Notes under the pieces: model-generated
Seen by the model: the letters and a program-made list of their open reading frames with translations, nothing else
Database searches by the model: none
Told to the model about the DNA's origin: nothing
DNA from: a bacterium
Lineage (GTDB): Bacteria > Sysuimicrobiota > Sysuimicrobiia > Sysuimicrobiales > Humicultoraceae
NCBI GenBank assembly: GCA_041497675.1
Contig: JBGQGY010000042.1
Coordinates: forward strand, 1 to 25,086
Direction: 5' to 3'
DNA length: 25,086 nucleotides
Translations under genes and position numbers: made by a program
In this document: positions 10,277 to 14,585 of the stretch, in pieces
Position numbering within the stretch: the stretch's first letter is position 1
Layout: each line of letters opens with the position of its first letter

Positions 10277-10900
10277 TCAGGGGACGAGCGTTGTCATCGT
10301 CCACCCCGACGGGTTCTTCTGGAATCGCCGCCGCTGGTGGAGCCGATCTTCGGGAGACCCGTGCCACGTCTCCACCTCGTCGGCGACGAGGTACACGCCT
10401 TGGAGGGTCTCGGGCAGCGGCACGTCCTCGGGCCGCGGATAGCGGCGGGTCAGCTCCGCGATGCCCTCCATGAGATCGGCGTGTGATGCGATCGGATGGC
10501 TCTGGGGAAGAACGGCGCTGTAGTAGCACTCCAGCAGCCGAGACCCGTGGCTCTTCTGGCTCCAGTAGCGCTCGATGCGCTCCTGATCCATCCGCGCCGG
10601 ATGGCCCCAGATGCGGTATTGCCGGCGCACCCTCGGCCAGTGGATCAACAGCGTCGCGCGTCCCGCTTGGGACAGTTGCGCCCACTTAGGGCTGGTCCGA
10701 TTGATGAGCAATCCAAAACCCTCACCGCTGATATCACGCAGCGACAAGGCCCGCACCTCCGGCCGCCCCTCCGCCGACACCGTCGCCAGGTAGCAGACGT
10801 CGACCAACGGTTCGCCGGCCAGCCGGGCCAGATCACGCATGTCGCGGATCTCCCGGATCGGATCGGCCACCGTGCCGGGCGCGCTCTCCGCCGCCGTCAC
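10277..10900 (-). CDS. Pyridoxamine 5'-phosphate oxidase (PdxH/PhzG)-like flavoprotein, divergent
   Basis: C-terminal part of ORF 10277..11539: YLATVSAEGRPEVR, NRTSPK, RQYRIWG, VETWHGSPEDRLHQRRRF, GWTMTTLVP. The start is GTG 10900 (GTGA overlap with the upstream stop) or GTG 10870. Confidence 0.8.
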   Translation of the reverse strand: MTAAESAPGTVADPIREIRDMRDLARLAGEPLVDVCYLATVSAEGRPEVRALSLRDISGEGFGLLINRTSPKWAQLSQAGRATLLIHWPRVRRQYRIWGHPARMDQERIERYWSQKSHGSRLLECYYSAVLPQSHPIASHADLMEGIAELTRRYPRPEDVPLPETLQGVYLVADEVETWHGSPEDRLHQRRRFQKNPSGWTMTTLVP

Positions 10901-12426
10901 AGCGGCACCCCGACGCCGGTAGCGGTCGCGTCGACGGGCCCGCGCTTCAGCGTCTCGCGGACGATCCGCCCGAGGATCTCGACGCCGCGGCGGATCTCGT
11001 CCGGTGATGGCCACCCATAACACAGCCGGAAGCAATTGAGGTAGCGACCGTCGATATCGTGCGCGGGACCCGGGTAGATCGTGACGCCCTGTTCCAAGGC
11101 GCGGAGATACACTTGAATCGCCGAGGAGCCCGACGGCAGCTGCACCCAGAGCGAAAACCCGCCATCGGGCACCGTGAAGGTGACGCCGTCGGGCATCGAC
11201 GACCGCAACGCATCGCGGGCGGCGTCCCGGCGCTGGCGATAGTGCGCCCGCATCGTCTCGAGATGGCCCGGGTACGTGTTCTCGAGCAGGTCGGCCATGA
11301 TGGCCTGCGTCATTGGCGAACCCCCCAGATCCATCCAGCGGCGGATCAGGGCCAGATCTTCGATCAAGGGCCGGTCCGCTGCGAGAAACCCGATCCGCAG
11401 CCCCGGCATGAACGTCTTGGAGAACGATCCAACGAGCATCCGCCGCGCGGGCGGCAGTTGCACATAGAGGCTGGGCGTTTCTTTGCCCGCAAATCGCAGG
11501 TCCCGAAAGATATCGTCGACGACCACGACCGCGTCCCACCGGGTCGCCGTCTCGACCAGCGCGGCCCGTCCGTCAGCACTCAGGCACTGGCCGGTGGGAT
11601 TGTGAAACTCTGGACAGCAGTAGACGACCGAGGGTCTCGCGCGCACAGCGCGGGTCAGCCGATCGGAACGGAGTTGCGGCCCATCCCAGGGGACCGTTTC
11701 CAACATGGTACCGGTCTGCATGAAGAGCCGCGGCGTGCCGATGTAGGTCGGCGTCTCGACGACGGCGGTGCGCTGTTCGTTGAGCGCCCACGTGGCGATG
11801 AGACCGATGGCCTGTTGCGAGCCGTTCGTGATGAGGATCTGATCGGGTGCCAGGTCGTAGCCGCGCGTCGACAGCCATTTCGACAAGCGCTCGCGGAGTT
11901 GCGGCAACCCGTTGTGGTGATAGCGGTACAACGCCTCTCGATGGTGCCGGATGGCGCGGATGGCCGCGCGCTCGAGCAGGCTCGGCGGGATCGTCGTTTC
12001 CGGCGGCACGCCCGCCCAGAGATTGATAAAGGGTTTTGGCGGGTCGACCCTGAGGAGCTGCACGACCCCAGAGACGTGGGTATCGCGCAGCCTCCGAACG
12101 AGGCCGACCACTTCGGGTCGCGTGAGTATCGCCTGATCATCGGCGTCGCCGTCCCGTTGAACGGTCTCGCCGTTCTTGAGGGCGCGGGCGGCCACGAAAG
12201 AGCCGCGCCCGACTTGTGAAACGATCAGCTTCTGCCGCTCGAGCTCGCGAAACGCCCGGACCACCGTGGCCTTGTTGACCGACAACCTGTTGGCGAGTTC
12301 GGCTACGGACGGGATGCGATCGCCCGGCTTGAGCCGCCCCGAGGCGACCGCGCTGCTGACGAAGTCCATCATCTGACGATACTTGGGCTTGGGACCTGTG
12401 GTCTTGAGCTTCAGTCTCCAGTCCAC
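10897..12426 (-). CDS. MocR/GabR-family regulator (GntR wHTH + PLP aminotransferase-like domain)
   Basis: LKPGDRIPSVAELANRLSVNKATVVRAFRELE...GRGSFV, ILITNGSQQA, VETPTY, FHNPTG, and GSFSKTFMPGLRIG containing the PLP lysine. GGGAGG precedes the GTG. Confidence 0.93.
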   Translation of the reverse strand: MDWRLKLKTTGPKPKYRQMMDFVSSAVASGRLKPGDRIPSVAELANRLSVNKATVVRAFRELERQKLIVSQVGRGSFVAARALKNGETVQRDGDADDQAILTRPEVVGLVRRLRDTHVSGVVQLLRVDPPKPFINLWAGVPPETTIPPSLLERAAIRAIRHHREALYRYHHNGLPQLRERLSKWLSTRGYDLAPDQILITNGSQQAIGLIATWALNEQRTAVVETPTYIGTPRLFMQTGTMLETVPWDGPQLRSDRLTRAVRARPSVVYCCPEFHNPTGQCLSADGRAALVETATRWDAVVVVDDIFRDLRFAGKETPSLYVQLPPARRMLVGSFSKTFMPGLRIGFLAADRPLIEDLALIRRWMDLGGSPMTQAIMADLLENTYPGHLETMRAHYRQRRDAARDALRSSMPDGVTFTVPDGGFSLWVQLPSGSSAIQVYLRALEQGVTIYPGPAHDIDGRYLNCFRLCYGWPSPDEIRRGVEILGRIVRETLKRGPVDATATGVGVPL

Positions 12427-12462: not shown

Positions 12463-12492
12463 AATATATATGGATATAAATCAGTACGTCAA
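12463..12492 (-). promoter_or_regulatory. Putative sigma70 promoter of the MocR gene, in an AT-rich patch
   Basis: The minus strand reads TTGACG (12492-12487) - N18 - TATATT (12468-12463), about 36 nt before the GTG start. TACCA repeats flank it at 12459-12463 and 12493-12497. Confidence 0.6.
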
Positions 12493-12648: not shown

Positions 12649-14562
12649 TCAGGTGGCGGCTTTCACAAGGGTGCAGCACAGATAGTCGGCCTGACCGGCG
12701 TTGAGCATTTGGAAAGTGCGCGTGCCCTTGGTACCGGCGAACCGCATAAACGGTTGGCGGAGGAACGCAGGGATCTTCTGGGACACAAGCATCTGTCTTC
12801 GTTCGTGCTCACACTCCAGTGCTTTCACAACGCTCCTGGTGATCACATGCTCGTCGAGCAGCAGGAATCTGGAAGACCGAAGGTGCTCGCGCAGCCGGGC
12901 GGTGCCGTCGTTGAACCGTAGATCCGCCAACAACAGCAGCCCTCCAGGTCTCAAGACTCGATAGACCTCAGCGAGGAATCGTTGCACAGAGCCGTAGCAG
13001 TGCGATGACTCGATGTTGAGCACCACGTCGAACTCGTCATCGCCAAATGGCAGCGCTTCGGCGTCACCGTGGGCAAAGGACAGACCTGGCATCGTCCGAT
13101 GGCGTCGACAGTGGACGATGGCTTCGCGCGAGAAGTCGACGCCGACCATAGTTCGCGGCCGCAGGTACCGCGAAATGTATGATGCACCTCCCCCCCGTCC
13201 GCAGCCGACCTCCAGGACGTCTCGACCTCCGAGGTCCACGGAAGCGGCGACGTGATGGTACAGCTGGATCGCGGACCGATCCTTCTCGTCTGCAGGAGCC
13301 AGCGGCAGGCGATGGGCCTGGGGATCCAGGTCGGCGAAACCATAGTTCATGAACGCCCAGTCGACGTCGTCGTCACGCGCCGCGAGGGCCTCGTAGAGCA
13401 TCCTCCAGAGCCACCGGCGCATGAACGGGGAGACGTTACAGAGAAACCCCAGGAGCGTCACCAGCATGCCGTCTTCGGCAACCCATGGCTGTGAGGTAGG
13501 ACTCGGCTGGGTGGCCGACGTTGCCGCCGCCCCAGCGTAGATCACGCTGCCAATCCATCGACCGCAGGCGAGACCCGCACCGCCGCTCGCGGCGCCAAGA
13601 AGGGCGCAGACCGCGAAGCCCCAGACGTCGATACCGGCCGGCAATTGGAGGAGAGACAGCACGACGTGCACCTGGCCGGCGTACAGCAGCCCCGCGAGCA
13701 CACCGCCGCCGAGGGGCATCGTGGCGATGAACCTGGACGTCACCAGAACCGGCGCAACCGCCCCGGCGAAGAACGCCAATTCAAAGGGCCAGCGCGGGAA
13801 ACTGACGGGGTTCACGACATACCCGAAGATGGCGGCTGCTGGAGGCGTCAGGGCGAGATGCAGGACCTGCTGCCCTCCCCAGAAGGCAAAACCGATCGTC
13901 GCCAGACGCTGCAGCTGAGATGGCCCGAGCACCTCCCGCGACACCAACAGAATCGCCGGCATGAGCAGGCTGGCAAATCCGGCGAGCATAAGAGGCGAAG
14001 GGGCAAAAAGGAGGCGCGATGTCACCACGAGGTTAGGGTGAAAGACGAGCATGGCGATCGGAAGGAAGCTAAAGGAGCCCGCAGTCAGCAGCACGCCAAC
14101 GAATACCCGGGTTGCCACGCTTGCCAGGCCGTCTGGGACGACGCCATCGCGTGCGGCGCGGACGAACGCCGTCGCCATTCCCAGCCCTACGATAAGTCCG
14201 CCCAGGACAAATAGCACATGCGGCGGACTCCAAACCGTCCGATCCCCGATCGTGCGATGCCAGAGGATATCGATTAGCGCCGCGCTCAACATCGCCGCAG
14301 CGCCTACAGCGACGACCCGGTGTGCTTGGGGCACGCGCGACCCGGTCATAGCGGGAGCCCTGCGCAGCGCCATGACAACCGCCAGGACAGCGCTCGCCCC
14401 GATCCCAACGTACATCAGGATGTGCGGAGGGATCCACAGCGAGTCGCGTCCGATCCACCAATGCCAGTGCGCATCCCAGGAGCCTGCCCACGCAAGACAC
14501 ACCGTGAACGCGACGAACAGTCCGGCCAGGACGAGCCGCTCGGCCACGCCCCCGCGCGTCAC
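12649..14562 (-). CDS. Fusion protein: polytopic membrane domain with two D-x3-H-x12-H motifs plus a class I SAM methyltransferase (phthiotriol-dimycocerosate MTase/Rv2952-like)
   Basis: WDAHWHWWIGRDSLWIPPH and IDILWHRTIGDRTVWSPPH lie in a hydrophobic N-domain, followed by an S/T/Q/P linker. The C-domain has AFMNYGF, IQLYHHVA, VLEVGCGRGGGASY, GDAEALPF, NIESSHCY and VLRPGG. GGAGG precedes GTG 14562; TTG 14589 is an alternative start. Confidence 0.8.
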   Translation of the reverse strand: MTRGGVAERLVLAGLFVAFTVCLAWAGSWDAHWHWWIGRDSLWIPPHILMYVGIGASAVLAVVMALRRAPAMTGSRVPQAHRVVAVGAAAMLSAALIDILWHRTIGDRTVWSPPHVLFVLGGLIVGLGMATAFVRAARDGVVPDGLASVATRVFVGVLLTAGSFSFLPIAMLVFHPNLVVTSRLLFAPSPLMLAGFASLLMPAILLVSREVLGPSQLQRLATIGFAFWGGQQVLHLALTPPAAAIFGYVVNPVSFPRWPFELAFFAGAVAPVLVTSRFIATMPLGGGVLAGLLYAGQVHVVLSLLQLPAGIDVWGFAVCALLGAASGGAGLACGRWIGSVIYAGAAATSATQPSPTSQPWVAEDGMLVTLLGFLCNVSPFMRRWLWRMLYEALAARDDDVDWAFMNYGFADLDPQAHRLPLAPADEKDRSAIQLYHHVAASVDLGGRDVLEVGCGRGGGASYISRYLRPRTMVGVDFSREAIVHCRRHRTMPGLSFAHGDAEALPFGDDEFDVVLNIESSHCYGSVQRFLAEVYRVLRPGGLLLLADLRFNDGTARLREHLRSSRFLLLDEHVITRSVVKALECEHERRQMLVSQKIPAFLRQPFMRFAGTKGTRTFQMLNAGQADYLCCTLVKAAT

Positions 14563-14585
14563 CCTAACCACCTCCCCTGCGGCCC

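Follow-up and report, generated by a model that had tools for sequence, protein, structure and literature searches.

The gene described here lies on the minus strand of a 25,086-nucleotide stretch of bacterial DNA (contig JBGQGY010000042.1 of GenBank assembly GCA_041497675.1, phylum Sysuimicrobiota; 'the window' from here on), and encodes, in a single chain, a ten-helix membrane domain, a polar linker and a methyltransferase of the S-adenosylmethionine (SAM)-dependent kind. The first 140 residues of the membrane domain are, on profile, ligand and identity evidence, a distant homologue of PmoC/AmoC, the C subunits of particulate methane monooxygenase (pMMO) and ammonia monooxygenase (AMO). What is new is that the clade of membrane proteins to which this one belongs has an enzymatic partner. 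This makes the family assayable, because the partner methyltransferase transfers a traceable methyl group from SAM.

The open reading frame (ORF; 14562-12649, minus strand) translates into 637 aa with zero internal stops, and its GTG start lies 23 nt from the stop of the upstream gene. A first-pass annotation of the window had picked out two membrane motifs of the form D-x3-H-x12-H, and both are where it placed them: D30-H34-H47 (14475-14422) and D98-H102-H115 (14271-14218). Shuffling residues 1-345 reproduces a pair of such motifs at a frequency of 5.5e-5 (200,000 shuffles). Over 64 columns, the hairpins that carry them share 33% identity, in support of the internal duplication that the annotation had proposed for the membrane core. 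The annotation was also right to place a complete Rv2952-like methyltransferase after the polar linker: it occupies aa 382-634, in the same frame as the membrane domain, and its best match is NF045823.

Proteins resembling the membrane domain are numerous—645 matches at E<=0.001 among 1.84 billion representatives, with the window domain as query. We aligned it with 107 homologues, picked mostly by length and drawn partly from the best 150 of these matches. The six triad ligands are invariant in all 108 sequences, and R39 and Y51 are conserved in at least 90% of them. When the profile of this family is run against 177,635 Protein Data Bank (PDB) sequences, the top 11 matches are all PmoC/AmoC (best E 5.9e-5), and the first unrelated match follows at E 0.0085. 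Against HmoC, encoded on a plasmid, the profile scores 32.4 bits with both triads in register, the first pairing with D115/H119/H132 and the second with N188/H192/H206; hhalign gives 81.7% for the same comparison. For residues 1-345, AlphaFold predicts ten membrane helices (predicted local distance difference test, pLDDT, 90), and residues 1-140 of this model align with four PmoC/AmoC chains at Z 8.5-9.3 and a root-mean-square deviation (rmsd) of ~3.1 Å over 137-138 residues, with 17-20% identity; the best of these is 7s4m_C (Z 9.3, rmsd 3.1 Å, 138 residues, 20% identity). The other chains listed in that comparison have 4-12% identity. The PmoC/AmoC relationship suggested by the annotation thus emerges from profile ranking, triad alignment and structural alignment alike.

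Residues 1-365 match no Pfam family at E<=0.1, the membrane part has no NCBIfam match, and the membrane domain as a single-sequence query finds nothing in the PDB; 18 of the 108 family sequences match PF04896 (PmoC), weakly, with E 0.0012 at best. A wide fold search with the whole domain returns cytochrome b561 (Z 11.9, 4% identity) as well as generic four-helix bundles, with no PmoC chain in the top 50, and we treat it as uninformative. The modelled fold score by itself does not discriminate PmoC from generic bundles; it is the sequence profile, the ligands and the identity together that make the case for residues 1-140.

In pMMO, according to the portions of PMC12576850 available to us, the CuC site consists of Asp156/His160/His173 and the CuD site of Asn227/His231/His245, the two lie ~6 Å apart and are never filled together, and Arg165 and Phe177 are neighbours of the CuD site. 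R39 and Y51 of the window protein stand at the same offsets as PmoC Arg165 and Phe177. The PmoC-like duplication seen by the annotation is thus borne out, in refined form: the triads match two distinct PmoC sites, CuC and CuD, and the duplication would therefore be common to PmoC itself.

Modelled alone, residues 141-345 form six helices (pLDDT 92). Their best fold match is 5edl, an S-component from an energy-coupling factor (ECF) transporter, with Z 10.2, rmsd 4.3 Å and 164 residues aligned, which falls under the level of Z ~13 held safe for helical proteins by the fold-search tool. Other S-components follow (RibU 5kbw, Z 8.4; FolT 5d0y, Z 7.8), and PmoA (3chx_B) scores Z 6.5. By sequence, the family profile of this half scores 20.2 bits against HmoA, compared with 10.9 or less for the unrelated ones among 416 hydrophobic ORFs of this genome. 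With moderate confidence, we consider the domain S-component/PmoA-like. That both match the same model hints that PmoA shares the S-component fold. This fold serves transporters and receptors alike, in the available portions of PMC11109136, and a term search of that paper's text finds no monooxygenases named. The annotation had proposed a stand-alone membrane metalloenzyme with PmoC-like motifs; the C-type homology stands, and because the C-terminal six helices appear S-component/PmoA-like, the protein is better called a C+A-like single chain than a lone PmoC. In helix 7, 11-14 of 14 clade members, but not the wider family, retain W228, Q231, H235 and T239, and this clade-only conservation makes them a candidate specificity pocket.

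The methyltransferase is related to the Rv2952 and Mtf2 families. It matches NF045823 (phthiotriol dimycocerosate methyltransferase) with 245-248 bits (E 6e-73; cut-off 300) and NF045825 (Mtf2) with 233-236 bits (E 4e-69; cut-off 400), and the next methyltransferase family in NCBIfam comes at E 3e-17. The match to PF08241 (77.4 bits, cut-off 21.2) identifies it as a class I SAM methyltransferase, and the SAM-binding glycine motif—E86, G90, R91 and G92-G94—is invariant in 15 of 15 homologues. No close solved structure was found; the best PDB match has E 4e-12. All 15 homologues also have amphipathic N-terminal helices (hydrophobic moments 0.56-0.98), the unfused ones included, and these helices likely dock the enzyme on the membrane. 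In the accounts of these enzymes available in part, the substrate of Rv2952 is phthiotriol dimycocerosate, and Fmt, which we take to be Mtf2, methylates the lipid moiety of glycopeptidolipids, which bear 3-hydroxy and 3-methoxy fatty acids.

The fusion is not confined to this assembly. The 90% cluster of the window protein has five members, four of them full-length 637-aa records, and a survey for recurrence, suggested in the annotation, found two more fused clusters—P0003 (668 aa) and P0004 (633 aa), respectively 61% and 60% identical to the window protein in the membrane part—plus adjacent split genes in related genomes. Contigs of four out of four other runs, none flagged as a possible source, bridge the junction at 13467, with no indel within the ORF. 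The fusion of genome G024 reads GCG, then CTG GTA, where the window has ATG 13467, and an internal start codon is for this reason not conserved in common. Recurrent fused clusters, bridging contigs and the GCG of G024 rule out an assembly artefact or a lost stop codon, and with them the annotation's own counter-scenario, a unique fusion with the methyltransferase made separately from ATG 13467. P0186, P0187 and P0188 group with the fused methyltransferases in one clade (support 99/97), and P0187 starts within the linker region; these sequences are most simply read as the outcome of a single fusion event. Both triads are intact in all three fused clusters despite ~40% divergence. P0186 is itself an internally deleted derivative of the fusion, in which ~30 residues of helix 7 are joined to the methyltransferase and both triads are gone.

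The fusion is one form of a wider association. In a tree of the family, the window's membrane domain falls in a clade with support 100/99, set off from other members by a gap in E from 1e-99 to 1e-28. The spacer is 12 in both triads in 18 of 19 clade rows (the exception, P0047, has 15 in the first), whereas the 14 rows outside the clade have a second-triad spacer of 13 or 18. The clade is present in 12 of the 94 genomes of the phylum, and the methyltransferase in 15, or in 14 when a stricter profile search leaves out G015, whose copy is contig-cut. Ten of the 12 clade genomes have the methyltransferase, against five of the other 82, and the two that lack it are 59% and 72% complete. Counted by genus, it is found in five of six with the clade versus eight of 31 (p 0.002, which is overstated, kin not being independent). 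In eight of the 12, it is fused or nearby: fused in the window genome (G000) and G024, paired head-to-head in G015, G016, G019, G048 and G051, and head-to-head with a cyclase gene in between in G049. In G017, a 154-bp remnant (locus L028, ~1445-1600), 78% identical to the stretch of G016 around its membrane gene's start, lies beside an intact methyltransferase; G017, by this sequence, has lost its membrane gene.

Among the metagenome loci examined, those of the best 80 of 291 relatives, several of which repeat lineages already in the genome count, there are seven full-length matches, four with the methyltransferase nearby and two with <310 bp of upstream sequence; two contig-cut loci, L096 and L099 (the latter probably a clade member), have it as well. 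At the other 71 loci, which belong to the distant family and many of which are short, it is nearby in none. The wider family has its own variants. The window genome encodes a 345-aa stand-alone paralogue (G000:C106:2099-3136, plus strand; locus L020) that has a second spacer of 13 and lies outside the methyltransferase-linked clade; it is opposite to, and overlaps the open frame of, another gene, presumably one for a GT-C membrane glycosyltransferase. In P0023, P0024, P0025 and P0027 (470-487 aa), the membrane domain is followed by an extra helix and a soluble domain, which opens with a His-Asp-Pro-Gly motif that is conserved and may be a metal-binding partner, fused and extracytoplasmic.

The annotation noted that no pmoA or pmoB is present in the window. 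This extends to the whole genome, 98.6% complete, where searches with PF04896, PF02461 and PF04744 find no match; on the control plasmid the A and B searches did score, and the C search found HmoC. The protein is accordingly no true pmoC/amoC product and no part of a pmoCAB operon: it does not match PF04896, and A, B and C genes are absent. Next to the membrane gene, in five of the 12 genomes, is a gene for a cyclase-ATPase-TPR protein, from two subfamilies, lying upstream and co-oriented in three genomes, and in the other two downstream and convergent. We take this adjacency as suggestive and its place in a module as uncertain, because the cyclase family is abundant and strongly expanded in the phylum: 72 of the 94 genomes have it, some with as many as 14 matches at E<=1e-60, and the window genome has ~10 such genes. 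HD-GYP-like, SpoIIE-GAF and cNMP-binding signalling genes occur nearby in single lineages. At two loci (L046:13446-13931 and L063:10404-10868), the gene pair has a small cupredoxin gene at a distance of 3-5 kb, and we do not count these genes as evidence for copper because they occur in these two lineages only.

How might such a protein work? The mean number of Lys plus Arg residues is 1.9-3.2 in the loops after helices 2, 4, 6 and 8, and 0.6-1.5 after odd helices. From this moderate signal we infer that both termini are inside, the metal site is near the outer face and the methyltransferase is cytoplasmic. Because related bacteria keep the two genes fused or adjacent, membrane domain and methyltransferase likely act on one fat-soluble molecule. 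The mechanism to which we incline, though we stop short of calling it probable, is that of a two-step tailoring enzyme, in which the predicted copper site hydroxylates a lipid-soluble substrate and the methyltransferase caps the hydroxyl. The two triads would make up one site, as in pMMO, and would use O2 to place a hydroxyl group on the substrate, held by the S-component-like half, which would also set the specificity. Electrons would come from the quinol pool, as they do in pMMO. With the metal site facing outward and the methyltransferase in the cytoplasm, the intermediate would have to be membrane-soluble and cross the bilayer from one to the other; its acceptor group would be an aliphatic hydroxyl, as with both named relatives of the methyltransferase, and a methoxy group would result. 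The annotation had taken the fusion as a hint to the function of a PmoC-like family: the linked partner gene gives substance to that hint, and the hydroxylase and O-methylation that it went on to suggest stay conditional. A bolder proposition, possible and to our minds doubtful, is that this is a one-chain copper monooxygenase, with C and A cores and no B subunit, in which biosynthetic C-H hydroxylation is wired to an O-methyltransferase, the product being a lipid or signal molecule with a methoxy group, which the cyclase-ATPase-TPR neighbour might read out. As it stands, the membrane part is a candidate copper membrane monooxygenase core, yet one outside the PmoCAB family by Pfam score and operon.

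Several findings weigh against this interpretation. The predicted location of the two active sites on opposite faces of the membrane rules out simple channelling. PF04744 (PmoB) is found in none of the 94 genomes, the clade is not accompanied by PmoB or anything PmoB-like, and its neighbours include no recurrent gene for a reductase or for lipid synthesis. Foldseek finds no match at E<=0.001 for either model (1-345 or 141-345), and generic four-helix bundles equal or exceed PmoC in fold searches, with Z up to 12.3. In the C-terminal half, S-components occupy nine of the 10 top fold-match rows, above PmoA; hhalign gives 1% for this half and HmoA, and no PmoA chain is among the PDB matches of the family profile. 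Triad 2 differs from CuD in having Asp for Asn and a spacer of 12 rather than 13 residues, 13 being the length in PmoC and in the wider family for the most part. The methyltransferase scores below both named NCBIfam cut-offs. Nor is the linkage absolute: in G021 and G050 the methyltransferase is unlinked, elsewhere in the genome, and L065, the remaining full-length metagenome match, has none within 6 kb. Dependence is one-way, the clade being nearly always accompanied by the methyltransferase and not the reverse, because the methyltransferase family is huge (2,617 matches at E<=1e-40 among 8,000 scored) and five genomes keep the methyltransferase without the membrane gene.

The membrane domain might instead be a receptor or carrier, and not an oxygenase: the C-terminal half might bind or move the substrate or product of the methyltransferase, such as a methylated signal lipid, with a structural or sensory role for the metal site and the cyclase neighbour as relay of the signal. 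The dominance of S-components in the fold matches is what one would expect, as is the use of that fold by transporters and receptors (PMC11109136, in part), and the cyclase gene that directly adjoins the membrane gene in two arrangements, together with the scattered signalling genes of single lineages, would fit too. We nevertheless think this unlikely. Conservation across the family is centred on the metal core, not on the C-terminal half, and the family retains what are likely second-shell residues in the pMMO site; an ECF module or signalling output domain is neither fused nor consistently adjacent, no ECF genes recur among the neighbours, and cyclases of this family are common throughout the phylum. 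Distinctly unlikely, in our estimate, is that the triads bind two metals, or zinc or some other metal that is redox-inert, and hydrolyse a lipid ester, amide or similar bond, the freed hydroxyl or carboxyl then being methylated. Asp begins both triads, which makes the ligand set harder than Asn-His-His, neither a redox partner nor PmoB is linked, and the CuC ligand set did bind zinc in the first pMMO crystals; against this, zinc in CuC abolishes pMMO activity (both from the available portions of PMC12576850). The copper monooxygenase C subunit, moreover, is the only enzyme family with detectable homology, and membrane hydrolases are absent from the significant sequence matches and the top fold matches.

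The two genes might instead share no pathway at all, and be one-time neighbours inherited together, with the fusion merely anchoring a membrane-loving methyltransferase. All linked cases are in one phylum and could stem from one event, a single clade holds the fused methyltransferases, P0186 has lost most of the membrane part and G017 the membrane gene. To pass from a head-to-head pair to an in-frame fusion, however, requires a rearrangement that keeps the same two genes together, the triads have survived ~40% divergence in the three fused clusters, and G021 and G050 retain both genes after unlinking; free methyltransferases, furthermore, already have amphipathic N-terminal helices of their own. 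We regard this explanation as improbable. Very improbable, finally, is a writer-eraser pair, in which the methyltransferase makes a methoxy group or methyl ester and the membrane oxygenase strips the methyl oxidatively on the outer face, in turnover of a signal or protective molecule. Copper membrane monooxygenases do cleave ethers, and the scheme accommodates active sites on opposite faces, the one-way dependence of the membrane clade on the methyltransferase, and the signalling neighbours. Against it, opposing activities fused without a regulatory domain risk a futile cycle.

Compared with known systems, the protein is a composite. Like PmoC, AmoC and HmoC (PF04896; 3rfr_C, 7s4m_C, 9cl6_C), it has a four-helix core with CuC-type and CuD-type triads in the same order, ~70 residues apart, the CuC-type one being Asp-x3-His-x12-His, and an Arg and an aromatic at second-shell offsets. 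Unlike them, it has no Pfam match, no N-terminal PmoC helices and no pmoCAB operon, is fused to a six-helix domain and a methyltransferase, and has Asp in triad 2, with a spacer one shorter. Its six-helix fold is like that of PmoA/AmoA/HmoA (PF02461) and of ECF S-components, from which it differs in identity (7-15%) and geometry (rmsd ~4-4.6 Å), in being the C-terminal half of a larger chain, and in having no ECF module beside it. The methyltransferase matches the profiles of Rv2952 (phthiotriol/phenolphthiotriol dimycocerosate) and the fatty-acid O-methyltransferase Mtf2 over their full length; it differs in falling under the equivalog cut-offs, in having no polyketide or glycopeptidolipid genes nearby, and in its linkage or fusion to a putative membrane metalloprotein. 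Orphan pmoC and amoC genes of methanotrophs, nitrifiers and phages are also C-subunit-type genes outside a pmoCAB operon, in the accounts available in part. As far as is known, they are typical members of PF04896 and associated with oxidisers of methane or ammonia, whereas the window protein does not match PF04896 and its genome has neither A nor B subunit. We found no published description of the distant family or of the fusion in a search that left most subscription journals outside its reach.

Whether CuC or CuD serves pMMO and AMO as active site is a long-running question, hard to approach in a three-subunit enzyme. In the large, unnamed family described here, a single chain retains both ligand sets, and the fusion and gene order of one clade supply the enzymatic partner. 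Were the protein indeed a one-chain biosynthetic copper monooxygenase, it would give the methane/ammonia monooxygenase superfamily its first biosynthetic member, and provide a simple model of the pMMO active site that can be expressed.

Table 1. The fused gene, its parts and its upstream neighbour, in window coordinates
Feature	Position	Strand	Remarks
Fused gene, 637 aa	12649..14562	-	Membrane domain of ten helices, then polar linker and class I SAM methyltransferase
GGAGG ribosome-binding site	14571..14575	-	8 nt ahead of GTG start at 14562; read from sequence
Residues 1-140, PmoC/AmoC-like four-helix core: two similar helical hairpins	14143..14562	-	Profiles, model, structural alignment
Triad 1, D30-H34-H47, CuC-type	14422..14475	-	R39, Y51 at PmoC Arg165, Phe177 offsets
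Triad 2, D98-H102-H115, CuD-type	14218..14271	-	Asp replaces PmoC Asn; spacer 12 in clade
Residues 141-345, six-helix ECF S-component-like/PmoA-like domain	13528..14142	-	Model, fold search, HmoA profile
Linker, residues 346-365, polar, poorly conserved	13468..13527	-	
Rv2952/Mtf2-like class I SAM methyltransferase, amphipathic N-terminal helices	12649..13467	-	Profiles, hydrophobic moments
Adenylate/guanylate cyclase - NB-ARC - TPR gene, 1037 aa	14586..17699	-	Upstream, co-oriented; module membership uncertain

Two other neighbours were considered as members of a module and dropped, being absent beside homologues. Upstream of the cyclase gene, and co-oriented with it, is a two-domain glyoxalase-family gene (PF00903; 17730-18635, minus strand). 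Downstream is a gene for a GntR-PLP regulator (10897-12426), ahead of which lies a 10/12 match to a sigma-70-like promoter (12463-12492, minus strand; 0.8 expected by chance), suggesting that the regulator is transcribed apart from the fusion. Farther off, two overlapping ORFs at 1906-2941 on the minus strand (2171-2941 and 1906-2331) resemble the two ends, N- and C-terminal, of an M3 oligoendopeptidase, frameshifted and with the middle missing.

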